A stretch of 26,627 nucleotides of DNA from Actinomycetota bacterium (lineage in GTDB: Bacteria > Actinomycetota > Acidimicrobiia > Acidimicrobiales > Ilumatobacteraceae). Both the position numbers and the translations under genes were made by a program. Under the pieces are notes generated by a model. That model searched no databases and was not told the DNA's origin. It saw only the letters and a program-made list of their open reading frames with translations. Within the stretch, counting starts at the first letter, position 1; every line of letters begins with the position of its first letter. The stretch covers positions 1-26,627 of the forward strand of contig JBDLRO010000118.1 of assembly GCA_039800025.1 (NCBI GenBank), in the 5' to 3' direction. This document shows positions 6,339 through 26,382 of the stretch, piece after piece.

Positions 6339-7730
6339 TCAGCGAGCCAGAGCGAGAATGTCGGCGAGCGCGGCCTCGAGACTTTCCGTGAGAAGCGATG
6401 GCTCGGCGATCGCTCGTGTGTCCATGTTGAGCCCCATGTCGAGGCTGCCGACATGTGAGAGCAGAGTCAGGTTGAATGCGACTCCGCCAAGCGGACCGAC
6501 AGGGAAGTTGCTCAAGATCTCGGAGCCCGCCACGTACACGGGTTGAGGAGTTCCTTTGACATTGGACGTGGCGAAGTCCACTGTTTGGGATTGAAGTCGT
6601 GCCAGACGGGTCGTGATTCCCGTCGGGAGTGAGCCGGCAACTGCAGCAATGGCGTTCAAGGCGTTGGCTGAGGATCCCGACGCAGCCTCCGTCGTGATCT
6701 CGTGAATGGCGCGAAATCGGTCGGCGACGGACATCTCGACCGTCGGGACCAGCATGCGAGCCAGAGAGAACGCGTTTGCTGAATCGTCACCTTTGGTCCT
6801 GGTGCTGATGGCCATCGAAGCTCGCAACTGGGGCACCGGTGAGCCGAGCGCCCGGTGATACCGTCCAGCTGCGTCACTCGCTGCGGTCAACAACAGGGTG
6901 TTCAGAGTTCCTCCGAGGAGGCGTGCGGCGGATCGGGCCTCGTCGAAGGGGACTTTGAGCACGTCGATTCGGCGACGCAAGGAGCGTTGCGTCCACAAAG
7001 GGGACTTTGCCGGTTCGATATCGGCCATCTGTCCGATGAGCGCACGCAGGGTATCCATCGTCGCAGCTCCAGCTGCGGGGACCTGCGTGGGGTCGGCGAT
7101 CAACTCGCGCATTTGCTTCACGAGTGCCAAGGGAAGTTTCAATGGCCCGGCGAGCACATCGCGCCACAGGTCCGAAGATCCGTGCTCGTGCATCGACCCT
7201 CGATCTCGTGAGTGTGACGAGATGGGTGGAGGCTCAGGAGCGGCACGGGTGAAATCGAAGAATTGGAGCGAGAGCTGAATACTGCCTTCTCCGTCGGCGA
7301 TCGTGTGGTGCAATTTCTCGACGAGAACCGCTCTTCCATCCGCGAGTCCTTCGACGACGACGAACTGCCACAGGGGTCGCGTGCGGTCGAATGGATCGTT
7401 GATGATCAGCGTCGCAAGATCGAGAAGCTGGCGCATCGAACCAGGTTGGGGAAGTGCGATCCGGCGAACGTGGTAGTCGATGTCGAAATCGGGATCCTCG
7501 ACCCACAATGGAGGCGTGAGATTGGCCGGAGCCGATTGAACCCGTTGTCGAAGACGAGGGATTGCGAACGTCGCTCGTACCATTCGTCGGCGGAGGCGAT
7601 CGAAGTCAGGCGCTCGATCCAATACGGAAAGATTGGCGAAGGTCGAGGAGAGATAGGGATCCTTGTCGATCCGCCACATGAGCGCCTCGGCATCGGACAT
7701 CTTGTGATCGAAGCGAATTTCTGCGGCCAT
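6339..7730 (-). CDS. Wax ester synthase/acyl-CoA:diacylglycerol acyltransferase (WS/DGAT)
   Basis: Catalytic HHTIADG (HHxxxDG), RDRPLW-like FDRTRPLW, WVEDPDFDIDYHV, C-terminal SNVKG. Confidence 0.93.
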   Translation of the reverse strand: MAAEIRFDHKMSDAEALMWRIDKDPYLSSTFANLSVLDRAPDFDRLRRRMVRATFAIPRLRQRVQSAPANLTPPLWVEDPDFDIDYHVRRIALPQPGSMRQLLDLATLIINDPFDRTRPLWQFVVVEGLADGRAVLVEKLHHTIADGEGSIQLSLQFFDFTRAAPEPPPISSHSRDRGSMHEHGSSDLWRDVLAGPLKLPLALVKQMRELIADPTQVPAAGAATMDTLRALIGQMADIEPAKSPLWTQRSLRRRIDVLKVPFDEARSAARLLGGTLNTLLLTAASDAAGRYHRALGSPVPQLRASMAISTRTKGDDSANAFSLARMLVPTVEMSVADRFRAIHEITTEAASGSSANALNAIAAVAGSLPTGITTRLARLQSQTVDFATSNVKGTPQPVYVAGSEILSNFPVGPLGGVAFNLTLLSHVGSLDMGLNMDTRAIAEPSLLTESLEAALADILALAR

Positions 7731-7736
7731 CGCCTC

Positions 7737-7742
7737 AGACTA
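7737..7742 (-). promoter_or_regulatory. Putative -10 box TAGTCT (leaderless start at 7730)
   Basis: Minus strand reads TAGTCT-GAGGCG-ATG. Confidence 0.5.
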
Positions 7743-7772
7743 TGAGGACGTCCGTATTACGTTTGCACCGAA

Positions 7773-8951
7773 ATGGGAGCGAACGCGTCGGCATCATCAG
7801 TTTTCCACCAGTCGTTCAGGCGATCGGCTTCTTTTGCGGCAATGCTGACGACGCTCATCATCATCGGATCGGCCTGCTCGTCCGATGATCCGATCAGCGG
7901 TCGGTCCGAGGACGTCGTGCACGATCTGATTCGAACCGACTCCCGTCCCCGTGTGGGTCCCGATGTCTGGGAAACGTTCGTCTGTCGGATCCCGGAAACC
8001 TATGACGCCGATCTCTACGACATGTCGGGAGTGAGGCTCGTCGAATCAGCCGAGTGGATCACGGCCGAGCTCGAGCCAGTGACGGGCTATTTCGAGCGGT
8101 GGTCGAACGGCCGTTACGTCGTCGAGTTCCGTGTCGGCGGTGAGGTCGAGGTGGATGTCGGCGGAGCAGAGGAATGCGTCGATGCGGCTCTCGACAGGAG
8201 CGCAGAGGACGTCGACGGTGTGTTGGTCGTGGCGGATGCTCAGCATCGTGAGGATCGAGTCGGCGGATGGGGAAGAGGCGGTCATCGGTGCGACGATCCG
8301 TGCTCCGTTCGTGAGTCGAAGAGGGCCATCTATCTCGGAGCTGCCGACTTCGTCGCAGGTTCTCCCGTGGTGCTCGATCTCGTCGAGCACGAATTCGGTC
8401 ATGCTCTCGAATGGCCGCACAGTTTCCGGAACGGACCCTATGACAGCGGAATCGATGTCATGAGCGACAGTGTTGCGCCCCGCCGAGACGTCGAAGCGCG
8501 AGTCCACGCGCCCGGAGTTCTCGCCATCAACCGGTATCTGTCGGGCTGGATGGAGAGCGAACCGCTCGCACTCGACTTGATTGCCGGAGATTCGGTCGAC
8601 ATCGATTCGGCGAGATTCGCCCTGTTGAAAACTTCGTCGTCACGGGCCATCTCGGTCGAGGTGATCGACAACGTGTCCGACAATTCACATCTCGACAGTG
8701 GAGGTGTCGCCGTCCACCTCATCGATTGGGATCATCGATCGTGCGAGAATCCGGGGCGCGTGAACGGCATCGGCGGTCGGTTCTGTCTCGGGGCGGCGCG
8801 CTCCCAACGACTCGTTGCACCTGAGAGTTCCCGCGATGGAGTGATGCGAACCGGCGATCAGGTCGATGTGGAGGGCGTGACGATCGTCGTCGAGTCGATT
8901 ACGTATCGATCGGGTTCGATCACGGCTTCGATCCGGTGGGAAGACGAGTGA
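7773..8951 (+). CDS. Putative lipoprotein zinc metallopeptidase (metzincin-like)
   Basis: Hydrophobic signal ending in a lipobox-like IGSA-C. Zinc motif HEFGHALEWPH followed by a Met-turn-like DVMS. Start uncertain (7773 or 7842). Confidence 0.7.
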   Translation: MGANASASSVFHQSFRRSASFAAMLTTLIIIGSACSSDDPISGRSEDVVHDLIRTDSRPRVGPDVWETFVCRIPETYDADLYDMSGVRLVESAEWITAELEPVTGYFERWSNGRYVVEFRVGGEVEVDVGGAEECVDAALDRSAEDVDGVLVVADAQHREDRVGGWGRGGHRCDDPCSVRESKRAIYLGAADFVAGSPVVLDLVEHEFGHALEWPHSFRNGPYDSGIDVMSDSVAPRRDVEARVHAPGVLAINRYLSGWMESEPLALDLIAGDSVDIDSARFALLKTSSSRAISVEVIDNVSDNSHLDSGGVAVHLIDWDHRSCENPGRVNGIGGRFCLGAARSQRLVAPESSRDGVMRTGDQVDVEGVTIVVESITYRSGSITASIRWEDE

Positions 8952-15602: not shown

Positions 15603-16844
15603 ATGAATTATCGTCACCTCATGGATTTCGAGTTACCCGGACAGGACGATGCGCGACGTACGGACATTCGCACGTGGATCGAAGCACATCCGAAACCGAC
15701 CGGTCGTGAACTTGCGGAGGCGGGTCTCGTGGCACCGCACTGGCCGAAACCGTATGGACGCGAAGCGGATCCGGTTCATCAGCTGATCATCGACGACGAA
15801 CTCTCGAAAGCCGGAATCCGCCGTCCAGCGAATCCGATCGGTATCGGATGGGCTGGACCAACGATTCTGTTTGCAGGAACCGAAGAGCAGAAGTCGACGT
15901 ATCTCACGAGACTCCTCTCGGGTGAAGACTTTTGGTGTCAGCTCTTCAGCGAACCGGGTAGCGGAAGCGACCTTGCCAATCTGTCGACGCGAGCCGTGCG
16001 TGACGGCGAGGAGTACATCGTCAACGGACAGAAGATCTGGACGAGCGGTGCACAGTTCGCAAAATTCGGAATTCTGATCGCGCGGACGAACCCTGACGCC
16101 CCCAAGCACAAGGGCGTGTCGTACTTCATCTGCCCCATGGACTTGCCCGGAATCGAGATTCGTCCGATCAAGGAGATGACCGGGGGAGCAACGTTCAACG
16201 AAGTCTTCTTCACCGATGTCCGGCTTCCAGCGGCGAACCTCGTGGGGGACGAGAACGAGGGTTGGCGTTTGGCGAAGGTGACGCTCGGCAACGAGCGCGT
16301 CTCGCTGTCGACGGGGGGCGTTCTTTGGGGAAGTGGTCCAACGGCGCTCGAGATGCTCGATGCTGTTCGGCTCCAAGGTCCGATCACGGATCCGGTGATG
16401 CGCCAGCGACTTGCCGGTGTCTACACCGAACACGTTCTCCTCGACTTGATCCGCATGCGAACTCTGTCGGCGAGATTGCGCGGTGAGCAGCCAGGTCCTG
16501 AGGCGAGTATCCGCAAGATCCTCGCCGATGAACACGGCCAGAACGTGATGGAGACAGCCCGCGATCTCATCGGCGCACATGCGATGTTGCAGCATTCTGG
16601 TGCAGACGTCCGAGATGAACACACGGGTCTCGGTGGTGGAGGCGGAGTGGGAACTCGGCCTCTCGAGCATGTTGGCTGGCTGCACGGGTACCTCTTCGCC
16701 CGCTCGTTGACGATCGGCGGAGGAACGGGTGAGGTTCAGAGAAACATCGTTGCCGAGCGTGTCCTCGGACTTCCCCACGATGTGGATGTCCAACACGGAC
16801 TGAGTTGGTCGCAAGCTCAGCGAGGTCCACAAGTAACGTCGTGA
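15603..16844 (+). CDS. Acyl-CoA dehydrogenase (FadE-like)
   Basis: WCQLFSEPGSGSDL, NGQKIWTS, FNEVFFTDV, TLGNER, TIGGGTGEVQRNIVAERVLGLP. Start at 15603 or 15621. Confidence 0.95.
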   Translation: MNYRHLMDFELPGQDDARRTDIRTWIEAHPKPTGRELAEAGLVAPHWPKPYGREADPVHQLIIDDELSKAGIRRPANPIGIGWAGPTILFAGTEEQKSTYLTRLLSGEDFWCQLFSEPGSGSDLANLSTRAVRDGEEYIVNGQKIWTSGAQFAKFGILIARTNPDAPKHKGVSYFICPMDLPGIEIRPIKEMTGGATFNEVFFTDVRLPAANLVGDENEGWRLAKVTLGNERVSLSTGGVLWGSGPTALEMLDAVRLQGPITDPVMRQRLAGVYTEHVLLDLIRMRTLSARLRGEQPGPEASIRKILADEHGQNVMETARDLIGAHAMLQHSGADVRDEHTGLGGGGGVGTRPLEHVGWLHGYLFARSLTIGGGTGEVQRNIVAERVLGLPHDVDVQHGLSWSQAQRGPQVTS

Positions 16845-16870
16845 ACAGGACGTTTCAAAGGGGAATCATC

Positions 16871-18091
16871 ATGACGATAGACACTGCAGCCGGCGCCCGG
16901 CCCACATTCGACTTGTTGGATCCGGAGTTCTATCGCTCCAATCCCCACGAGTCGTGGGCTTGGATGCGCGTGAACGAACCGGTGTATCGAGACGACCGGA
17001 ACGGATTGTGGGGCGTGACACGCCACAAGGACATCCAGGATGTCGAGCGTCGATCGTCGGTCTTCGTGTCCGGTCTCGGGTATCGCGCCAACTGGTCACC
17101 CGATGAAATCAACATGATCGCCCAGGACGATCCGCGTCATCGCCAGCAGCGAATGCTCATCCAGCCTCATCTGAGTCACAAAGCGGTAGCAGATCGACAG
17201 CCGGAACTGGACGGCCTGGTCGACGAGTTGATCGCCGGACTGATCGATCGCGGTGCTACTGGCGCGGAGATGATCGATGCATTGGCGGGTCAACTTCCAG
17301 CGCGCACGACGTGTCGACTGCTCGGGTTTCCCGAAGAAATGTGGCCGCAAGTCAAGCAGTGGAGCGAGCGCCTGATGCGGATCGACATGATCCATCGTGA
17401 CGGAACGCAGTTCTCCGAGTTCATCGATGCGAATATGCAGTTCGCGTCCGTTCTCGGAATGATCGCCCCGGAAAAGATCGAAGCAGCGGCCAAAGGCTGT
17501 CCGATGAACGATTTCCTCACCGTCTGGTTGACCGAGGCAATCGACGGGGCAACTCTTTCGCCCGAGGCAGTCGTCCACGAGACGGGTCTCTTCATTGCCG
17601 GAGGTGCCGAGACGACTCGTACGGCGATCAGCCACGGACTGCGGACCTTCGTCGACCACCCTGATCAGTGGGAGGCGATGGCAGCGGATCCGAGTCTGGT
17701 TCCCGGAGCTGTCGAGGAGGTGTTGCGCTGGGTGACGCCGTTGAACAATTTCTTCCGTCGTGCGGTCGTCGATTCGGAGATCGCTGGACGACCTGTCAAG
17801 CGCGGAGATCGCATCATCTTGTTGTATCCGTCGGCGAATCGTGACGAGACGGTTTTCGATCGACCGTTCGAGTTCGACATTCGTCGCGGATCGAATCCGC
17901 ACCTGGCATTCGGGTTCGGAACACATCTGTGTGTGGGAAGCAATTTCGCGCGCGCATCGCTGATCACCGTCTTCACCAAGATGTCGCAGGCGGTGACGAA
18001 TCTGCGAGTCGTCGAAGAGATCGATGTCGAGGCGAACATCTTTGCTCGTGCAGTGAAGTCGTTCCGAATGGGTTTCGACCGTCGAGTGTGA
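16871..18091 (+). CDS. Cytochrome P450 (CYP142-like by recalled motifs)
   Basis: I-helix AGGAETT, ExxR EEVLR, heme ligand FGFGTHLCVG. SD AAGGGG before ATG 16871. Confidence 0.95.
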   Translation: MTIDTAAGARPTFDLLDPEFYRSNPHESWAWMRVNEPVYRDDRNGLWGVTRHKDIQDVERRSSVFVSGLGYRANWSPDEINMIAQDDPRHRQQRMLIQPHLSHKAVADRQPELDGLVDELIAGLIDRGATGAEMIDALAGQLPARTTCRLLGFPEEMWPQVKQWSERLMRIDMIHRDGTQFSEFIDANMQFASVLGMIAPEKIEAAAKGCPMNDFLTVWLTEAIDGATLSPEAVVHETGLFIAGGAETTRTAISHGLRTFVDHPDQWEAMAADPSLVPGAVEEVLRWVTPLNNFFRRAVVDSEIAGRPVKRGDRIILLYPSANRDETVFDRPFEFDIRRGSNPHLAFGFGTHLCVGSNFARASLITVFTKMSQAVTNLRVVEEIDVEANIFARAVKSFRMGFDRRV

Positions 18092-18157: not shown

Positions 18158-19222
18158 ATGGCAAGAATTCCCCGGATTGTTCCCTTCGTCGTCGGCGTCG
18201 GACTGGTTTCGAGTCTCGTCGCCTGTGGCGACGAGACGTCGACAGAGAGCACGGGCTCGACACCAGTTTCTGCTGAAGAGCCGTGTCCGACGCGTGAACC
18301 CGTCGATGGCCGTGTTCTTCGCATTGCGACGACGGTGGCTCCGATCACGAGTATTGCTGCGAACATCGCATCGGGTACCGGCACCGAAATCCAGGGAATC
18401 GTCCCCGAAGGGACCAACAGCCATACCTACGAACCTCCTCCGAGTGTGGCGGCTACCCTCGAATCGGCTGACATCGTGTTCATCAACGGTCTCGTGCTGG
18501 AGGAGCCCACCAAGAATTTGGCTTTGGCGAATGCCGCAGAGGGTTCGGTGATCTGCGAACTCGGTACCGCGATCTTGCCGCGAGAGGAGTGGATCTTCGA
18601 CTTCTCCTTCCCCGAAGATGGTGGAAAGCCGAATCCTCATTTGTGGACGAACCCACCCATGGCGCTCGAGTATGCCGCGTTGATTCGCGACTCGTTGTCG
18701 GCAGCGGACCCGGACAATGCAGCAACGTATGCATCGAACTACGAGGCCTTCGCAGAAAAGGTGGCGGGTCTGGATGAGGCTCTGCGGAGCGACTTGGAGG
18801 GGCTGGACGAGTCCAAGCGCCAGTTGCTGACCTACCACGATGCATACGCGTACTTCGCGAAGGAATATGGCTGGACGGTCATCGGAGCAATCCAGCCGTC
18901 GTCGTTCGAAGAGCCGACGCCACGAGAGATCGCCGATCTCATCGAGCAAGTCCGATCGACCGGAATCACAGCAATCTTCGGCAGTGAAGTGTTCCCTTCG
19001 ACCGTTCTCGAGCAGATCGGCAACGAGACCGGCGTGCGATACGTGGACGTTCTGCGCGATGACGATCTGATCGGAGCGCCGGGTGACGCCGATCATTCCT
19101 GGCTCGGACTGATGCGGTTCAACTACGTGACGATGATCGAAGCCCTCGGCGGAACGGCTGAGAATCTGAAGGCTCTCGACGTGTCCGATGTCGGACCGGA
19201 CTCCGCCGTCTATCCGCAGTAG
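18158..19222 (+). CDS. Metal ABC transporter substrate-binding lipoprotein (cluster A-I, ZnuA/TroA/PsaA family)
   Basis: Lipobox LVAC. Motifs GTNSHTYEP, PNPHLW, TYHDAYAYF and EPTPREI. Confidence 0.93.
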   Translation: MARIPRIVPFVVGVGLVSSLVACGDETSTESTGSTPVSAEEPCPTREPVDGRVLRIATTVAPITSIAANIASGTGTEIQGIVPEGTNSHTYEPPPSVAATLESADIVFINGLVLEEPTKNLALANAAEGSVICELGTAILPREEWIFDFSFPEDGGKPNPHLWTNPPMALEYAALIRDSLSAADPDNAATYASNYEAFAEKVAGLDEALRSDLEGLDESKRQLLTYHDAYAYFAKEYGWTVIGAIQPSSFEEPTPREIADLIEQVRSTGITAIFGSEVFPSTVLEQIGNETGVRYVDVLRDDDLIGAPGDADHSWLGLMRFNYVTMIEALGGTAENLKALDVSDVGPDSAVYPQ

Positions 19223-19294
19223 TTGCAGCGCTTGACTGGCTCGACGTGATTCCACTCGTTGGGTCGTAGGCGATGAGAGGTCGTGTCCAAGCGT

Positions 19295-19300
19295 TAGGTT
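19295..19300 (+). promoter_or_regulatory. Putative internal -10 box TAGGTT, 7 nt before GTG 19308
   Basis: TAGGTT-GGACGCA-GTG in an 85-nt intergenic gap. Confidence 0.35.
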
Positions 19301-19307
19301 GGACGCA

Positions 19308-20126
19308 GTGATGTCGTCGCCACAGCCGTCGGACTCGTCCGATCTCGTCCAGTTCGATCACGTGTCGTGCTCGTACGGCGGGTCTCCCGTCGTCGAGGAT
19401 GTCGACATCGTCGTGCGTCGAGGCGATTTTCTCGGAATCGTCGGACCGTCGGGTTCTGGCAAGACGACCGTCTTGCGAGCGCTCCTTGGCTCGATTGCTC
19501 CCGTGCACGGTCGAATCAGAAGAAGCCCGGGTCTCCGCCTCGGGTACGTGCCCCAGTTGGAAACCGTCGATTGGAACTTTCCGGTCACTGTCGGAGAAGT
19601 CGTGGCGATGGGACGTCAGCAGAGCAAGTTGTGGCCGACGCTGTCAGCAGATGAGAAGAAGCAGATCTCGAGCATTCTCGAACGACTCGGTCTCGAGGGT
19701 CTCGAACGACGCCACATTCGCGAATTGTCGGGTGGACAACAGCAGCGGGTCTTCCTGGCACGAGCTTTGATGCAAAAGCCCGACATCTTGGTGCTCGACG
19801 AGCCGACTGCCGGTGTCGATGTGCGGACCCGCCACGAGATTCTCCACGTTTTGGTCGATCTCAATGAGGCTCCGCCGATCGGCGACGGCATCACGATCGT
19901 TCTGACGACCCACGATCTGAACGGACTGGCTGCTCACCTCCCGCGCCTCGTGTGTTTCAACAGGACAGTCATCGCCGACGGCCGTCCGAGTGATGTGCTG
20001 CAGCCATACTTCTTGGAACGCACGTACGGTGCCCCCATGGAAGTTCTCCTGCACGGGGGAATGCCCGTAGTTCTGGAACAAGGTGGCGAAGAACTGCGCG
20101 AACGACTCGGGCGTCGTGGAGCATGA
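19308..20126 (+). CDS. Metal ABC transporter ATP-binding subunit (ZnuC/MntA-like)
   Basis: Walker A GPSGSGKT, signature LSGGQQQR, Walker B LVLDEP, H-loop TTHDL. Confidence 0.95.
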   Translation: MMSSPQPSDSSDLVQFDHVSCSYGGSPVVEDVDIVVRRGDFLGIVGPSGSGKTTVLRALLGSIAPVHGRIRRSPGLRLGYVPQLETVDWNFPVTVGEVVAMGRQQSKLWPTLSADEKKQISSILERLGLEGLERRHIRELSGGQQQRVFLARALMQKPDILVLDEPTAGVDVRTRHEILHVLVDLNEAPPIGDGITIVLTTHDLNGLAAHLPRLVCFNRTVIADGRPSDVLQPYFLERTYGAPMEVLLHGGMPVVLEQGGEELRERLGRRGA

Positions 20127-20154
20127 GGGGAAGCATGACCTTCCAGCGGTTCGC

Positions 20155-21024
20155 ATGATGGCCGTCGATCTCCTCGAACCTTTTTCTTTCGCCTTCTTTC
20201 AGCGAGGACTCATCGTTGCAACTTTGGCGGGGGCCTTGTGCGGACTGATCGGAGTCTTCGTCGTCCTTCGAAACATGAGCTACATCGGTCACGGTCTGAG
20301 CCATGCGGTATTCGGCGGTGCAGCGCTCGCCGCCGTCCTGAATCTCAACTATTTCTTGGGTGCGGGAATGTGGGGTCTCGCTTCCGGTTTGATGATCGCC
20401 CAGGTTGCTCGCAAGAGAATCATCGGAGCGGACGCTGCGATCGGAGTCATCACGACAGCCTCGTTCGCAATGGGACTCGCTCTCCAGGCGAGGTTCGGTC
20501 AGGCGAAGCGCAGTATCGATGCAGTGCTGTTCGGGAACGTACTCGGTGTGTTCAACCGTGACATCTTCGCCGTTCTTGCGGTGGGCATCGTCAGTATCGC
20601 CGTCATCGTTCTGCTCTACAGGCGACTCCTCTTCACGACCTTCGATCCGGAGGTGGCTGGCGTCAGCGGTGTGAGCGTCCCCCGAATGGAGGGCGTTCTG
20701 ATGCTCCTTCTGTCAGCGACAATCCTGGTGACGGTCAGAGTCATCGGAGTGCTCCTGATCTCAGCACTGCTCGTCCTGCCTGCTGTCACGGCGCGCATGA
20801 TCACCAATTCGTTCGGGCGCATGCTGTGGCTGTCTCCCGTCCTCGGTGCCGTGTTCGGAGGAATTGGCATGTACGCGAGTTGGTACGCCGATGTCCCGAG
20901 TGGCGCGGTGATCATTCTCGCCGGGACGATCGTGTTCATTGCGGTGTACTCGACTGTCGGTGTTCGACGTCGCGCCCGTGTGGCAGGACTCGATCACCAC
21001 GGATCCTCACTTCGATCCGCGTAG
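20155..21024 (+). CDS. Metal ABC transporter permease (ZnuB/MntB-like)
   Basis: VVLRNMSYIGHGLSHAVFGG, LFGNVLG, FDPEVA and multiple TM helices. Start uncertain (20155 or 20158). Confidence 0.93.
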   Translation: MMAVDLLEPFSFAFFQRGLIVATLAGALCGLIGVFVVLRNMSYIGHGLSHAVFGGAALAAVLNLNYFLGAGMWGLASGLMIAQVARKRIIGADAAIGVITTASFAMGLALQARFGQAKRSIDAVLFGNVLGVFNRDIFAVLAVGIVSIAVIVLLYRRLLFTTFDPEVAGVSGVSVPRMEGVLMLLLSATILVTVRVIGVLLISALLVLPAVTARMITNSFGRMLWLSPVLGAVFGGIGMYASWYADVPSGAVIILAGTIVFIAVYSTVGVRRRARVAGLDHHGSSLRSA

Positions 21025-22287
21025 CTCCCAGGTCGCTCCTTGTGGTGTGTCGTGGACGTCGACACCGAGCTCGACCAGTCGATCGCGAATGAGGTCGGAG
21101 AGGTCGTAGAGCTTGTCCGATCGGACACGGGTGCGAAGGTCGAGGAGAGAATCCACGAACGGGGCGACGATTGCACGTGGGTCGACAAGTCCGGAGAGCG
21201 CCGCATCTCCGAGGCTGACGACCATCGAGCGCAACGTGGCTCGAGCGAAGTCCATGTCGTCGCTCTGCAGGGTGTCGGCAGACCATTGGTGGATCGCGGT
21301 CTCGAGTTCGAGGATCGCTCGCACCGCTGCAGTGGCATCGAGATTGCCCAATGCGGCTTCGAAGGCTGATCGTGCCGATTCGGCCTCGGCTGCCAATGAG
21401 GTACCGAGAACGCTGTCGCCGTCGGAATTCGTTTCCTGTACGAGACCAGCAGGAATGAACACCTGGGTGCTTCCCGGCTCGCGCAAAGCATCGATTGAGA
21501 GTGTCGTTCCTGAGCGGTGTTCGGTGGAGGTTCCCCGAATGCGAACAGTGACCGACCCGTTTCCGACGATCGTCGCCATTCCTCCGTCGACATCGATGAC
21601 GAGCCCTGTGTGTTCGTCGATCCCGATGACGTGGGCATCATCGGGAAGCATGTTCTCCATGACGTCGAGTCGACGCTGACCGAGGTAGCAAAAACGCGTG
21701 TCGTGGTGGCCGCCCTCGGCGTTGTCGAAGTGGGGGATGATCGCAACGTTCAGACCGATTGCAGACAGGACGTCGAGACCATCGAGCCAATGAGGCTCCA
21801 TGCCCACCTTGTAGATCTCGTAGACCGGAACGGTGAACCGCCCGAGAGTCAGCGCTGCCGCCGACGAGAACGTGATGATCCCTCCGCTGCGCATCTTGGA
21901 GGTGAGAATTTCTGGGAGCGGAGTTCCTGTCCATTGGTGGAGCGCGTATGTCGGACTTCCCGGGCCAGCGAAGACGTAGTCGGACTCCCGGACCCGGTTC
22001 AGCCCATGTTCGACTGCCACCTCGTCGACGTCCGACTGTCCGTTGAAATCCACGGACTTGATTCGAGCGAGTCCCGCTGCGCCGACTTCATGGCCGACGC
22101 TCTGTTTGAAGTAATCGATCGCTCGCTGTGCCAATTCGGCTGCATTCTCCTGGAATCCGTAAGGCGTGTCGAGGATGACTCCGCGAGCCTGTGCACCGAG
22201 GCGCGCGAGGAGGTCTCGATGGGTCTTGATCATCGTCGGAGACGTCTCACCCGAACCCATGATGGTGATGATGCGAGGGAGAGTCAT
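21007..22287 (-). CDS. Fusion protein: peptidase S51/class I glutamine-amidotransferase-like hydrolase plus a C-terminal CysRS-like anticodon-binding helical domain (426 aa)
   Basis: N-terminal IMGSGE, FAGPGS, FSSAAA (Ser142), IPHFD (His186), GIDEHT (Glu225). C-terminal LLDLRTRVRSDKLYDLSDLIRDRLVELGVDVHDTPQGATW. True start ATG 22287 overlaps the upstream stop (ATGA). Confidence 0.85.
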   Translation of the reverse strand: MTLPRIITIMGSGETSPTMIKTHRDLLARLGAQARGVILDTPYGFQENAAELAQRAIDYFKQSVGHEVGAAGLARIKSVDFNGQSDVDEVAVEHGLNRVRESDYVFAGPGSPTYALHQWTGTPLPEILTSKMRSGGIITFSSAAALTLGRFTVPVYEIYKVGMEPHWLDGLDVLSAIGLNVAIIPHFDNAEGGHHDTRFCYLGQRRLDVMENMLPDDAHVIGIDEHTGLVIDVDGGMATIVGNGSVTVRIRGTSTEHRSGTTLSIDALREPGSTQVFIPAGLVQETNSDGDSVLGTSLAAEAESARSAFEAALGNLDATAAVRAILELETAIHQWSADTLQSDDMDFARATLRSMVVSLGDAALSGLVDPRAIVAPFVDSLLDLRTRVRSDKLYDLSDLIRDRLVELGVDVHDTPQGATWELRGSK

Positions 22288-23174
22288 CGCAGGAAGCCTT
22301 CTTCGAGGTTGTCGATCAGAACATGAGCGGTTCGCTCGGGGAACTGCGCATGAAGGTCGTGATGTGCGGGTCGAAACCAATGGGCCCGTCCGCACGCAAG
22401 TATCTTCAGCGCTTCGTCGATCGCATGCTCCTTGTTGCGAGTCCAGGAGACATCTCCTGAGTCCGCGGGCAGGAACAGGAGTGGTTGGCCGATCTCGGAG
22501 AACATGGCCGACGGTCGATGCATCCAGAGCTCGCGCAGAATGGTCATGTGGCGGTCGAACGAGAGCCACGGACTGAGAGTCCCATCGTCGTGGTACTGGA
22601 AGTTGGAAAGTGCTCCGATGATTCCGGATTCAGGCCAATCGGCGTTCATCGACCTGATGGCGCTCTCGAGGCGGCTCGCTCGTGTTCCTGCGAGCCGCGG
22701 TGGCTGCAGATGGTTGGCGCAGTCGTCCCACGACGGAAACGACTGTGCGAGTTCGATGAAGCCGCCGTCCACGGCGACCCCGGACGTGAAGACATCCGGG
22801 CGTTGGTGCAGCCCATGAACGGCGATGTTCCCGCCCCATGATTGTCCGACGAGGATCGCGCGCGTGACGCCGAGTGCGTGCACCGCCGAGACGATGTCGC
22901 CAACGACGGTGTCGAAGTCGTAACCGTCGTCAGGTTTGTCGCTGAGGCCGTGTCCTCGCAGGTCGATCGCGACGCTCGAATACCCACGGGCATCGAGGGC
23001 GGCAGCGACGCCGTCCCACATTCGGGCATTCGATGCGAGCCCGTGCACGAGGACGAAGACGGGACCACGTTCGAGGTCTCCTCTGATGAGCGATCTCAGA
23101 GTGGGACCTCCTGGCACGGGGAGTCGTCGATCGACTGCGTCGTTCACGGGGAATCGATCGTACGGCGTTGTCAT
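22284..23174 (-). CDS. Alpha/beta-fold hydrolase
   Basis: HGLASN, DLRGHGLS, GQSWGG nucleophile elbow, C-terminal HHDLH. Confidence 0.92.
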   Translation of the reverse strand: MTTPYDRFPVNDAVDRRLPVPGGPTLRSLIRGDLERGPVFVLVHGLASNARMWDGVAAALDARGYSSVAIDLRGHGLSDKPDDGYDFDTVVGDIVSAVHALGVTRAILVGQSWGGNIAVHGLHQRPDVFTSGVAVDGGFIELAQSFPSWDDCANHLQPPRLAGTRASRLESAIRSMNADWPESGIIGALSNFQYHDDGTLSPWLSFDRHMTILRELWMHRPSAMFSEIGQPLLFLPADSGDVSWTRNKEHAIDEALKILACGRAHWFRPAHHDLHAQFPERTAHVLIDNLEEGFLR

Positions 23175-23227
23175 GAGGTCTCAGTCTGCCGGGCGGTCGG
23201 GGCGATGATGTGCCACGATGGTGTGGC

Positions 23228-24082
23228 ATGAGTGAGGCCGACGTTCAGCAAGTCGACATCGACGTCAAGCTCGAGCGATTGCGCGGGATCCTTGCGGATT
23301 TCGAATCCGTCGTCGTCGCCTTCAGCGGGGGAGCAGATTCCACTTTTCTCGCTGCGGTCGCGAACGAGGTACTCGGGGTCGACCGTTGCCTGTGTGTCAC
23401 GGCGATCTCTCCCAGCCTTGCTTCGTCGGAGCACGCCGAGTGCCGAGACATTGCGGATGAACTGTCTCTGCGATGGCAGCCCGTGGCAACGGCGGAAATG
23501 GAAAACGCCGCCTATCGGATCAATGATCCGGAACGCTGTTATCACTGCAAGGCCGAGTTGATGGACGTGATCGAACCCATTGCGCGAGGCGAGAGAGCAA
23601 CGGTCGTTCTCGGCGTGAACGTGGACGATCTGTCCGACCATCGCCCGGGCCAGCGGGCGTCGATCGAACGCGGGGCTGTGTTCCCACTTCTCCTCGCCGG
23701 TTTCACCAAGAACGACGTGCGCCTTGCATCGCGACGCATGGGTCTGAGGACGTGGAACAAACCTGCGGCAGCATGTCTCGCAAGTCGAATTCCCTACGGC
23801 ACCCCGGTGTCGGTCGAGGTGCTCTCCCGAGTCGATCGTGCCGAAGCTGCATTGAGAGCGTTGGGGTTCGGTCAAGTTCGAGTTCGCCACGATGGCGATG
23901 TGGCGAGGATCGAAGTGCCCGAGGAGGACTTCGCTGGAATCATGGCCGTACGCCGGGAGGTCGTCGAGGCCATGTCCTCGGCGGGCTATGCGTTCGCGAC
24001 ACTCGACCTCGAAGGTTTTCGTTCGGGCAAACTCAACAGAGTGCTCGACGCGAGTTCGTCATCCGGCAGCCCACGCCCATAG
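23228..24082 (+). CDS. larE: LarE-family ATP-dependent sulfur transferase (PP-loop), CxxC-C type
   Basis: PP-loop FSGGADS, RCYHCK, DDLSDHRPG, KPAAACLASRIPYG, QVRVR, DLEGFRSG. Start moved to ATG 23228. Confidence 0.9.
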   Translation: MSEADVQQVDIDVKLERLRGILADFESVVVAFSGGADSTFLAAVANEVLGVDRCLCVTAISPSLASSEHAECRDIADELSLRWQPVATAEMENAAYRINDPERCYHCKAELMDVIEPIARGERATVVLGVNVDDLSDHRPGQRASIERGAVFPLLLAGFTKNDVRLASRRMGLRTWNKPAAACLASRIPYGTPVSVEVLSRVDRAEAALRALGFGQVRVRHDGDVARIEVPEEDFAGIMAVRREVVEAMSSAGYAFATLDLEGFRSGKLNRVLDASSSSGSPRP

Positions 24083-24136: not shown

Positions 24137-25192
24137 ATGAAGCTGTCGATGATGCTCAATTACGCGGGTGGTTTCCATGCTGCGGTGGACAAAGTGGTCG
24201 AACTCGAAAAGGCCGGGCTCGATGTCGTCTGGGTCGCAGAGGCGTACAGCGCCGATGCCATCAGTCAGGTCGGTTATCTGGCGGCCAAGACCGAGCGAGT
24301 CGAGATCGGAACGGGCATCGTCAACGTCTACAGCCGAACAGCGGCCTTGATGGCGATGACAGCAGCGGGATGCGATTACGTGAGCAATGGCCGATTCATC
24401 CTCGGTCTCGGAGCGAGCGGCCCCCAGGTGATCGAAGGTTTCCATGGCGTGCCGTATGAAAAGCCGATGGTGCGGATCAAGGAGTACATCGAAGCATGTC
24501 GCATGATTTGGGCTCGTGAGCAGCCCTTCCAGATGGACGGAGAGACCGTGAAAGTCCCTCTTCCAGCGGGACAGGGCACGGGTCTCGGCAAGCCGCTGAA
24601 GATCATCAAGCCCGGTCAGGAGATTCGCACGGACATTCCGATCTGGTGGGCGAGCCTCATGGGATTGAGCGTCGCTGCAACCGCTCAGTACGCAAACGGG
24701 TGGTTGCCGATCTTCTTCGACCCGGAAAAGTTCCAGCAGGTCTGGGGCGACGATCTGAAGAAGGGAACCGCAAAACGCGATCCTTCGCTCCCTCGGCTCG
24801 AGATTTCGGCAGGTGGAATGGTCGCCATCGACGAATCGCTCACGGGTGATGCACAGAAGAAGATCCTCGACTTCTCACGTCCGAATACTGCGCTCTACAT
24901 CGGTGGCATGGGAGCACGCGACAAGAACTTCTACAACACGATCTGCCGCAAGTACGGGTACGAGAAAGAAGCTGGAGAAATCCAGGATCTGTACCTCTCC
25001 GGGAAGAAGGACGAAGCTGCCGCTGCGGTTCCGCACGAGATGCTCGCGAACACCAACCTCGTCGGACCGAAGAGCTACGTCAAGGAGCGGATTGCTGCCT
25101 ACAAGGAGGCAGGAGTGACGGTTCTCTCGGTGAACCCTGTCGGCCCGGACGCAGTGAAGACGATCGAGACACTCAAGGAGATGATCGGCTGA
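24137..25192 (+). CDS. LLM-class F420-dependent oxidoreductase (Rv3520c-like)
   Basis: WVAEAYSADA, YSRTAALMAMTAAG, GRFILGLGASGPQVIEGFHG. Confidence 0.9.
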   Translation: MKLSMMLNYAGGFHAAVDKVVELEKAGLDVVWVAEAYSADAISQVGYLAAKTERVEIGTGIVNVYSRTAALMAMTAAGCDYVSNGRFILGLGASGPQVIEGFHGVPYEKPMVRIKEYIEACRMIWAREQPFQMDGETVKVPLPAGQGTGLGKPLKIIKPGQEIRTDIPIWWASLMGLSVAATAQYANGWLPIFFDPEKFQQVWGDDLKKGTAKRDPSLPRLEISAGGMVAIDESLTGDAQKKILDFSRPNTALYIGGMGARDKNFYNTICRKYGYEKEAGEIQDLYLSGKKDEAAAAVPHEMLANTNLVGPKSYVKERIAAYKEAGVTVLSVNPVGPDAVKTIETLKEMIG

Positions 25193-26382
25193 TGGCCGCG
25201 ATCGGGGGAGTCGTCGCTTCTGGATGGGAAAGCGTTCGCGACGCATTCGTTGCGAACCTCGACAGTGGTGAAGAGACCGGCTGTGCGGTCTCGGTGTATC
25301 ACCGAGGAGACAAAGTCGTCGACTTGTGGGGAGGGTCGTTCGATGCCGAGCATTCGAAACCCTACGAAGAGGACACTCTCCAGCTGGTCTTTTCCACGAC
25401 CAAGGGGATCACGGCGATTGCCGTCGCGATGTGCGTCGAGCGGGGGCTCTTGTCGTATGACGCTCCTGTTGTGAAGTACTGGCCGGAGTTCGCCCAGCAC
25501 GGCAAGGATTCTGCGACCGTTGCCCAGCTCTTGTCGCATCAGTGCGGTCTGTACACCGTCGATGGAGACATCACCCTTGCAGAGGCCCTCGACTGGGATG
25601 CGGTCACGGCTCGACTGGCCGATACGAAGCCACGCTGGCCGATCGGCTCGACGCACGGCTATCACGCTCTGACATACGGCTGGCTCGCCGGTGAACTCGT
25701 TCGTCGCGTCGACCCAGCGGGGCGCTCGCTCGGAACGTTCGTGAAGGACGAGATCGTGGATCCGCTCGGTGTCGAGTTGTGGATCGGTCTGCCCGAGCAC
25801 CTCGAGCCGCGAGTGTCGCCGATGATCGGAAGCCTCGATTCGGGAGCGGACGACATCGCTGATCCGGCCATCAAGGCGATGATGGAGCAATTCCTCGGTC
25901 CCAATTCGCCTGGCGGTCAGGCGCTCAGTCTGAACGGTGCCTTCTCGGTCGATGGCGCGTTCAACCGCCGTGACGTTCATGCAGCGGAGATTCCCGCCGC
26001 CAACGCCATCACCAACGCTCGCTCACTCGCTCGCATCTATTCGGCGACGCTCGGTTCCGTCGATGGCGTTCGACTTCTCGCACCGAACACTGTCGATGTC
26101 GTGCGCAACACGGTGACGCCAGCAGGCGAACCCGACGCGTGTCTCATCATGCCGACGACCTTCGGCATGGGATTCATGACGCATGGACCCTTCTCTCCCT
26201 ATTCGGGTCCTGGTGCGTACGGACACCCGGGAGCCGGAGGATCGGTCGCGTTCGCCCATCCGGAGCGCGGACTTGCTGTCGCCTACGTCATGAACCAGAT
26301 GGCGAAGAATTTGGCGAACGATGTGCGGGCTCAGCGGGTGTCGGAGGCTGCAGCCGCGTGCGCAGACTCCGTGTCGCGTTGA
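25192..26382 (+). CDS. Serine hydrolase, beta-lactamase/class C esterase fold (EstA-like)
   Basis: FSTTKG (SxxK), LLSHQCGL, YHALTYG, GHPGAGGS. TGATG coupling to the upstream gene. Confidence 0.92.
   Translation: MAAIGGVVASGWESVRDAFVANLDSGEETGCAVSVYHRGDKVVDLWGGSFDAEHSKPYEEDTLQLVFSTTKGITAIAVAMCVERGLLSYDAPVVKYWPEFAQHGKDSATVAQLLSHQCGLYTVDGDITLAEALDWDAVTARLADTKPRWPIGSTHGYHALTYGWLAGELVRRVDPAGRSLGTFVKDEIVDPLGVELWIGLPEHLEPRVSPMIGSLDSGADDIADPAIKAMMEQFLGPNSPGGQALSLNGAFSVDGAFNRRDVHAAEIPAANAITNARSLARIYSATLGSVDGVRLLAPNTVDVVRNTVTPAGEPDACLIMPTTFGMGFMTHGPFSPYSGPGAYGHPGAGGSVAFAHPERGLAVAYVMNQMAKNLANDVRAQRVSEAAAACADSVSR

Follow-up and report, generated by a model that had tools for sequence, protein, structure and literature searches.

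Cysteinyl-tRNA synthetase (CysRS) contacts the GCA anticodon of tRNA-Cys through its C-terminal region, which covers residues ~335-461 of the Escherichia coli enzyme (PDB 1U0B). In this structure G34 receives hydrogen bonds from R427 and D436, W432 stacks on it, and D436 and R423 take part in a water network with it (PMC12684709). An engineering study altered the anticodon specificity of CysRS by mutating R427, W432, D436, and R439 (PMC13449415). MshC, the ligase that joins cysteine to glucosaminyl-inositol (GlcN-Ins), is a paralogue of CysRS that uses ATP and no tRNA; it has the synthetase core, but no anticodon domain. The S51 peptidases, among them the acI-B1 actinobacterial peptidase 6NQC, the cyanophycinase CphB, and the aspartyl dipeptidase PepE, carry a Ser-His-Glu triad. 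The gene described here joins parts known from CysRS and from the S51 family. It is found in a window consisting of the whole 26,627-nucleotide stretch of contig JBDLRO010000118.1 (assembly GCA_039800025.1) from a bacterium of the Ilumatobacteraceae (Actinomycetota, Acidimicrobiia). The open reading frame starts with an ATG at 22287, stops at 21007-21009 on the minus strand, and encodes 426 amino acids. In this fusion protein a flexible linker of ~25 residues tethers a putative tRNA-Cys reader to an S51 domain whose Ser142-His186-Glu225 triad is intact, and judged from its sequence it is very probably an enzyme working on tRNA-Cys. The gene and its parts are as follows.

21007..22287, minus strand: whole gene, S51-like hydrolase plus CysRS-type tRNA-Cys-binding module, 426 codons and stop
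21478..22287, minus strand: residues 1-270, peptidase-S51 / class-I glutamine-amidotransferase-like fold, from fold search and motif conservation
21862..21864, minus strand: codon of Ser142, putative nucleophile, aligned to the Ser of CSAGA in 6nqc
21730..21732, minus strand: codon of His186, triad histidine, aligned to IPHF of 6nqc
21613..21615, minus strand: codon of Glu225, triad acid, aligned to GIDE of 6nqc
21397..21477, minus strand: residues 271-297, probably a flexible linker
21181..21396, minus strand: residues 298-369, helical bundle, profile-aligned to E. coli CysRS ~335 to ~405
21010..21180, minus strand: residues 370-426, CysRS-type anticodon-binding domain of two helices and a beta-hairpin, with Pfam CysS_C at 378-420

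The initial annotation of the gene, made from the DNA sequence alone, had recognised residues 304-426 (21010-21378) as resembling the end of CysRS, and this is borne out by profile comparison for both the helical bundle and the anticodon-binding domain. A family profile built from 69 full-length members, 34-59% identical to the query, matches CysRS structures in the PDB with E-values from 3e-14 to 2e-11. The match to 8qhp has an E-value of 3.4e-14 and that to E. coli CysRS (1li5/1u0b) one of 7.7e-12, the latter pairing profile positions 297-417 with residues 335-460 of the chain. The fusion protein taken as a single sequence scores 20.8-22.4 bits against Pfam CysS_C (PF23493) over residues 378-420, just below the cut-off of 23 bits, and the domain is found in 47 of 50 family members with a best E-value of 1e-11. 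The likeness to CysRS is one of homology over ~120 residues, with the same order of helices and the terminal beta-hairpin, and equivalents of R423, R427, W432 (as an aromatic residue), D436, R439, D451, and W458 have been kept.

Across the family the last 134 residues have a mean column identity of 37%, and exactly six columns were scored as invariant: R385, R389, D398, R401, D413, and W420. By HMMER alignment these map to R423, R427, D436, R439, D451, and W458 of E. coli CysRS. Over the 69 members R385, D398, and R401 are each present in 69, while R389 is found in 67 with a lysine in the remaining two. The seventh key residue of the domain, Y394 in the window protein, aligns to E. coli W432 and its position is aromatic in 68/69 members. 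By this alignment the family has retained the GCA-contacting positions of CysRS (E. coli R423, R427, W432, D436, and R439). The initial annotation had also named tRNA-Cys as the target, and this gains support because the family-invariant residues are the anticodon-contacting residues of E. coli CysRS. That the most strongly selected residues of the tail appear to be the readers of the tRNA-Cys anticodon is good indirect evidence for tRNA-Cys binding.

The AlphaFold2 (AF2) model of the full protein has a mean predicted local distance difference test score (pLDDT) of 92.3 and a predicted TM-score (pTM) of 0.79. Disorder is predicted only at residues 275-292; the pLDDT is 45-53 over residues 271-290 and falls below 50 at 275-277 and 280-292. 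The helices of the bundle lie at 298-314, 318-335, and 342-365. The C-terminal part folded alone reaches a pLDDT of 94.7, and 1u0b, the complex of CysRS with tRNA-Cys, is its top and only clear match in the PDB (probability 1.00, 25% identity over 134 columns). In the full model residues 299-423 pair with 332-461 of 1u0b at a Z-score of 8.3. The rigid-body fit to this complex, a superposition suggested in the initial annotation, is poor, and the predicted packing of the bundle differs (root-mean-square deviation, rmsd, ~16 Å). Because of this poor fit the homology of the C-terminal part rests mainly on the sequence profiles, and structure alone would not have proved it for the isolated domain. 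The S51 domain joins the same end of the bundle as does the synthetase core in CysRS, and the linker enters the bundle from the side that in CysRS is turned towards the acceptor arm.

As a single sequence the N-terminal half scores 18.6-19.9 bits against Pfam Peptidase_S51 (PF03575) over residues 97-232, just under the gathering cut-off of 23.9 bits, and the cyanophycinase model TIGR02069 gives 26.9 bits, under its cut-off of 126.6. The 69-member profile matches the S51 structure 6nqc with an E-value of 1.3e-12, and the N-domain of the AF2 model has Z-scores of 25.5 to 6nqc, 23.9 to cyanophycinase (7uqw/3en0), and 20.4 to PepE (6a4r); Foldseek matches to S51 structures have E-values from 1e-14 to 1e-9. 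[quoted passage not shown] The fold (Z-scores of 20-25) and the Ser-His-Glu order are those of the S51 peptidases, and GSGE and GxSAxA-type motifs are common to the fusion protein and 6nqc. The motifs FS-S142-AAA, IP-H186-FD, and GID-E225-HT, quoted in the initial annotation, are present and align to the Ser, His, and Glu of 6nqc. Ser142 is kept in 68/69 members of the profile and in 120/121 of a larger family set, Glu225 in 67/69 and 119/121, and His186 is invariant (69/69 and 121/121). The predicted triad therefore stands in S51 order, and it is kept in both clades of the family described below.

The fusion protein differs from the S51 peptidases by its score under the Pfam threshold, by family-specific insertions and motifs (PVYEIYKVG at 154-162, EGGxHDTRFCY at 191-201, and DEHT at 224-227), and by the tRNA-binding module, which is found in no characterised S51 enzyme. 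The remaining family motifs of the domain are GSGE at 11-14 and GPGSP at 108-112. An insertion with conserved His195, Asp196, and Cys200 follows right after the catalytic His, and His226 lies beside the catalytic Glu, in both clades. The cluster of His195, Cys200, and His226 near the triad may conceivably form a thiol- or metal-binding site.

The protein is not a synthetase, as had been noted from the start. HIGH and KMSKS motifs are absent from its sequence, the cysS models (TIGR00435) match it only at model positions 343-464 of 466 and not in their catalytic part, and the MshC model (TIGR03447) gives no match. Unlike CysRS it has no Rossmann core, no HIGH/KMSKS, and no CP or SC-fold domain, and therefore it cannot carry out aminoacylation. 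The genome encodes a separate, full CysS, whose presence the initial annotation had proposed to check, and a tRNA-Cys(GCA) with U73 (L114:40-112). It also encodes an MshC-like CysRS paralogue of 382 amino acids without an anticodon-binding domain (G000:C43:133-1281, L001), whose score with the MshC model, 421 bits, lies below the cut-off of 485 bits. As CysS, tRNA-Cys(GCA), and an MshC-like gene are thus all encoded separately, the fusion protein is no synthetase, whole or in part. Complementation of a truncated CysRS was ruled out, since the host CysS itself carries a C-terminal domain. Nor is the fusion tail a recent copy of that of the host CysS (BLASTP E-value 4.6); by hhalign it matches the host CysS with an E-value of 2e-5. 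A tRNA-Cys gene adjoins the fusion gene at 0 of 121 loci.

Other genes of the mycothiol type are present as well. The genome of the window encodes an MshA-like glycosyltransferase of family GT4 on C220, with 383 bits, and has an MshD-like fragment where contig C40 ends, and two complete relatives, G062 and G105, have MshA-, MshB-, MshC-, and MshD-like genes together with the fusion operon. This suggests a divergent mycothiol pathway in the Acidimicrobiia lineage of the window. Given the full Msh-like set in the complete relatives, the fusion protein cannot simply be a missing MshC here.

The gene does not stand alone. Directly upstream lies an alpha/beta-hydrolase gene:

22284..23174, minus strand: alpha/beta hydrolase of 296 amino acids with a GQSWGG nucleophile elbow, Pfam Abhydrolase_1/6

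The start codon of the fusion gene overlaps the TGA of this gene in an ATGA at 22284-22287, read directly from the sequence, and the two genes are therefore translationally coupled. The hydrolase has only generic matches, to epoxide hydrolase, haloalkane dehalogenase, and esterase families, and so gives no clue to the substrate. An alpha/beta hydrolase is found directly upstream at 61 of the 80 nearest loci and at 69 of 121 loci in all, in four phyla.

The family is large. Among the best 8000 candidates scored, namely those sharing most words with the query, at least 7995 clusters at 90% identity match at E <= 0.001, and 512 clusters at 50% identity have E<1e-30. Relatives are found in at least 590 species genomes of Actinomycetota, Chloroflexota, Dormibacterota, Rokubacteria, and a phylum of sulfate-reducer type, the members of this second phylum bearing the NCBI labels Desulfobacteraceae and Planctomycetota. 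Among the sampled genomes the family is present in 31/401 of the Actinomycetota and 24/201 of the second phylum. A tree of 121 sequences displays two groups. The larger one, of 94 rows, contains the window protein and members from Acidimicrobiia, other Actinomycetota, Chloroflexota, Dormibacterota, and Rokubacteria, and all 69 loci with the upstream alpha/beta hydrolase belong to it. The smaller one has 27 rows, and in 14 of these a gene for a FemAB-like/Acetyltransf_6 GNAT protein and a GT4 gene adjoin the fusion gene. The GT4 is the best MshA match of its genome, and the operon usually goes on with a PIG-L deacetylase, a phosphatase, and inositol-1-phosphate synthase (Ino1). In nine of ten operon-bearing genomes of the second phylum the MshC model finds only one match, at CysS level, and MshD was not found in the sister-clade genome G401. 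The relatives of the fusion protein thus occupy the place where MshC would be expected in GlcN-inositol operons, and as in MshC, CysRS-derived parts are linked to cysteine chemistry. The parts are the reverse ones, however, and in the genome of the window MshC-like genes coexist with the fusion gene. Since both groups keep all catalytic, family-specific, and anticodon-contact residues over the 121 sequences, the two clades probably share one biochemical activity.

The helical bundle is shorter in some members, and genomic variants of 379-389 amino acids keep the tail and have the bundle alone shortened. Four members without a CysRS tail (P0137, P0208, P0228, and P0264) were set aside; their C-termini are rich in Arg, Pro, and Trp and look like frameshifted calls in high-GC assemblies. 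With frameshift-like ends in these and a retained tail in the short variants, there is no evidence for other C-terminal modules in the family. Database names of members are mostly "cyanophycinase-like exopeptidase" or hypothetical. The expectation in the initial annotation that some homologues are misannotated as CysRS proved right for at least one entry, AFDB A0A7W0YYB5, a 322-residue family fragment named "Cysteinyl-tRNA synthetase" in UniProt/AFDB, which is an annotation error.

We tentatively propose that the protein binds to tRNA-Cys and carries out acyl chemistry on the 3' end of this tRNA, in a transfer linked to mycothiol-type metabolism, although we consider this well short of probable. 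The most economical mechanism, by analogy with the S51 enzymes, would be that Ser142 attacks the aminoacyl ester of Cys-tRNA(Cys) to give a cysteinyl-enzyme, and for this there is a precedent in the S51 family, in PDB 7uqw, where according to the structure title an acyl-enzyme is trapped in cyanophycinase; the trapping there made use of 2,3-diaminopropionate in the place of the serine. The cysteinyl group would then pass to an amine acceptor of mycothiol-type (GlcN-inositol) thiol metabolism, so that the net reaction would parallel that of MshC but depend on tRNA instead of ATP. The coupled alpha/beta hydrolase might act on the same metabolite, before or after the transfer, and the cluster of His195, Cys200, and His226 might hold the thiol of the cysteine, possibly by way of zinc, CysRS and MshC being zinc enzymes. 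A proposed attack on the ester of an aminoacyl-tRNA, followed by transfer or hydrolysis, is shared with FemX/FemAB, L/F-transferase, and MprF as well as with YbaK, AlaX, and DTD, but the catalytic fold is unrelated, being S51 rather than GNAT or YbaK-type. To our knowledge the FemX/FemAB- and YbaK-type enzymes read the acceptor arm and none has the anticodon-binding domain of a synthetase, and no other case is known to us in which such a domain has been reused on a non-synthetase catalytic fold, nor did literature searches turn one up. The more specific idea that the S51 domain constitutes a new structural class of aminoacyl-tRNA-dependent transferase, moving cysteine to an amine acceptor such as GlcN-inositol, seems unlikely to us.

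Several observations weigh against a transfer of this kind. None of the 94 loci in the clade of the window has the thiol operon, and the lineage of the window already has MshA-, MshB-, MshC-, and MshD-like genes, so that a second cysteine ligase is not obviously needed. The FemAB-like protein of the thiol operons could itself be the tRNA-dependent transferase, and the characterised S51 enzymes are hydrolases. The C-terminal model superposes poorly on CysRS (TM-score 0.37, rmsd 15.9 Å). That all characterised S51 members hydrolyse would suit a trans-acting deacylase, of the kind that the initial annotation had put forward among other activities, in which the tail selects tRNA-Cys and the S51 triad hydrolyses what the tRNA bears, nothing being passed on to an acceptor. 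The residue removed from tRNA-Cys would be a wrong one, or one that is oxidised, S-modified, or N-blocked. The signs of tRNA-Cys docking and the conserved triad count for such an activity as they do for transfer, CysRS lacks an editing domain, the partner gene in the clade of the window also encodes a protein of hydrolase fold, and deacylation is compatible with MshC-like genes elsewhere in the genome. It leaves the place of the sister clade in a biosynthetic GlcN-inositol operon without a cysteine ligase unexplained, however, the patchy spread over 31/401 and 24/201 genomes would be odd for a general quality-control factor, and the fold searches found no similarity to the known editing folds YbaK, AlaX, and DTD. 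We regard deacylation as a doubtful explanation; the operons of the sister clade, together with active sites that are identical in both clades, tip the balance slightly towards transfer. The gene context, with the alpha/beta-hydrolase operon and a sister clade placed in mycothiol-like operons that lack MshC, points at least as much to acyl transfer in cysteine-thiol metabolism as to editing. The initial interpretation is partly supported, for the architecture and for tRNA-Cys as target, while the activities it named (editing deacylase, N-acyl-aminoacyl-tRNA hydrolase, tRNA-regulated peptidase) stay proposals.

In two further explanations tRNA-Cys is not the substrate. The tail might sense uncharged (or charged) tRNA-Cys and switch an S51 exopeptidase or amidase, which together with the alpha/beta hydrolase would free cysteine from mycothiol, its desacetyl form, or peptides. 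S51 enzymes such as PepE cleave after an N-terminal residue with a free amine, which is the form of Cys-GlcN-Ins, the lineage has a full mycothiol-like gene set, and an operon of two hydrolases would fit deacetylation followed by release of Cys. Here no enzyme that adds cysteine would be evident in the thiol operons of the sister clade unless the FemAB-like protein serves, no precedent is known to us for the anticodon domain of an aminoacyl-tRNA synthetase acting as an allosteric sensor on a peptidase, and a linker at the acceptor-arm end of the bundle fits catalysis on tRNA better than sensing; a role as a switch thus appears distinctly improbable. The protein could finally be an ordinary S51-type exopeptidase whose CysRS-derived tail has lost tRNA binding and serves folding, oligomerisation, or partner binding. 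The exopeptidase names in the databases, the varying length of the bundle, and the lack of a rigid superposition on CysRS would agree with this, but without tRNA binding the surface residues that contact RNA would be expected to drift, and at 34-59% identity, over at least four phyla, the only invariant residues of the tail are at the anticodon-contact positions of CysRS. We find this very unlikely.

The other genes around the operon were also considered. A znuA/znuC/znuB-like metal ABC transporter (18158-21024, plus strand) is convergent with the fusion gene, with an 18-nucleotide tail-to-tail overlap (21007-21024), and znuB is found within a few kb at about half of the nearest loci, mostly in Acidimicrobiia. 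As znuABC is convergent, is not co-transcribed with the fusion gene, and has this neighbourhood mostly in Acidimicrobiia, it was treated as synteny, and no evidence for a functional link was found at the loci compared. A gene for a LarE-type ATP-dependent sulfur transferase (23210-24082, plus strand; TIGR00268, 297 bits) is divergent from the hydrolase operon. It was rejected as a module of the operon and is probably a case of lineage synteny, since it adjoins the operon at only 11 of 80 related loci. The genes at 24137-26382 and 15603-18091, both on the plus strand, belong to ordinary metabolism and no link to the fusion gene was seen; the metabolic genes of the surroundings encode a luciferase-like monooxygenase, a beta-lactamase-family protein, an acyl-CoA dehydrogenase, and a cytochrome P450. 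Rfam detected no regulatory RNA in the window, and the stretch was absent from all RNA runs listed for expression.

Some further arrangements were seen at other loci. In three thiol-type operons a small stand-alone S51 (cyanophycinase-like) paralogue is encoded directly upstream of the fusion gene (L087 7223-7945, L111 7399-7917, and L128 about 7155-7832). At two distant actinobacterial loci (L064 5952-9317 and L113 7187-9245) the fusion gene lies downstream of clpS and a gene for DUF2017, all on one strand. ClpS is in other bacteria an N-degron adaptor associated with aminoacyl-tRNA protein transferases. The ClpS-DUF2017, NIF3/Zn-ribbon, and malic enzyme neighbours recur too rarely to be interpreted.

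Full-text literature searches found no paper on an architecture of S51 domain plus CysRS tail, and it is not mentioned in the survey from the Aravind laboratory of synthetase-like proteins in non-ribosomal peptide synthesis. What is new here is the mapping of all invariant tail residues onto published anticodon contacts, the structure of the family with its two clades, the conserved coupling to an alpha/beta hydrolase in the clade of the window, and the occurrence alongside a complete set of mycothiol-like genes. This large family is so far unstudied. If its members bind tRNA-Cys, they may supply the cysteine addition still missing from mycothiol-like pathways outside Actinobacteria, and an S51 transferase would then be an ATP-independent route to mycothiol-type thiols, also in phyla not known to make them. 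They might instead represent the first dedicated quality-control factor for tRNA-Cys, or a new tRNA-sensing switch on thiol metabolism.

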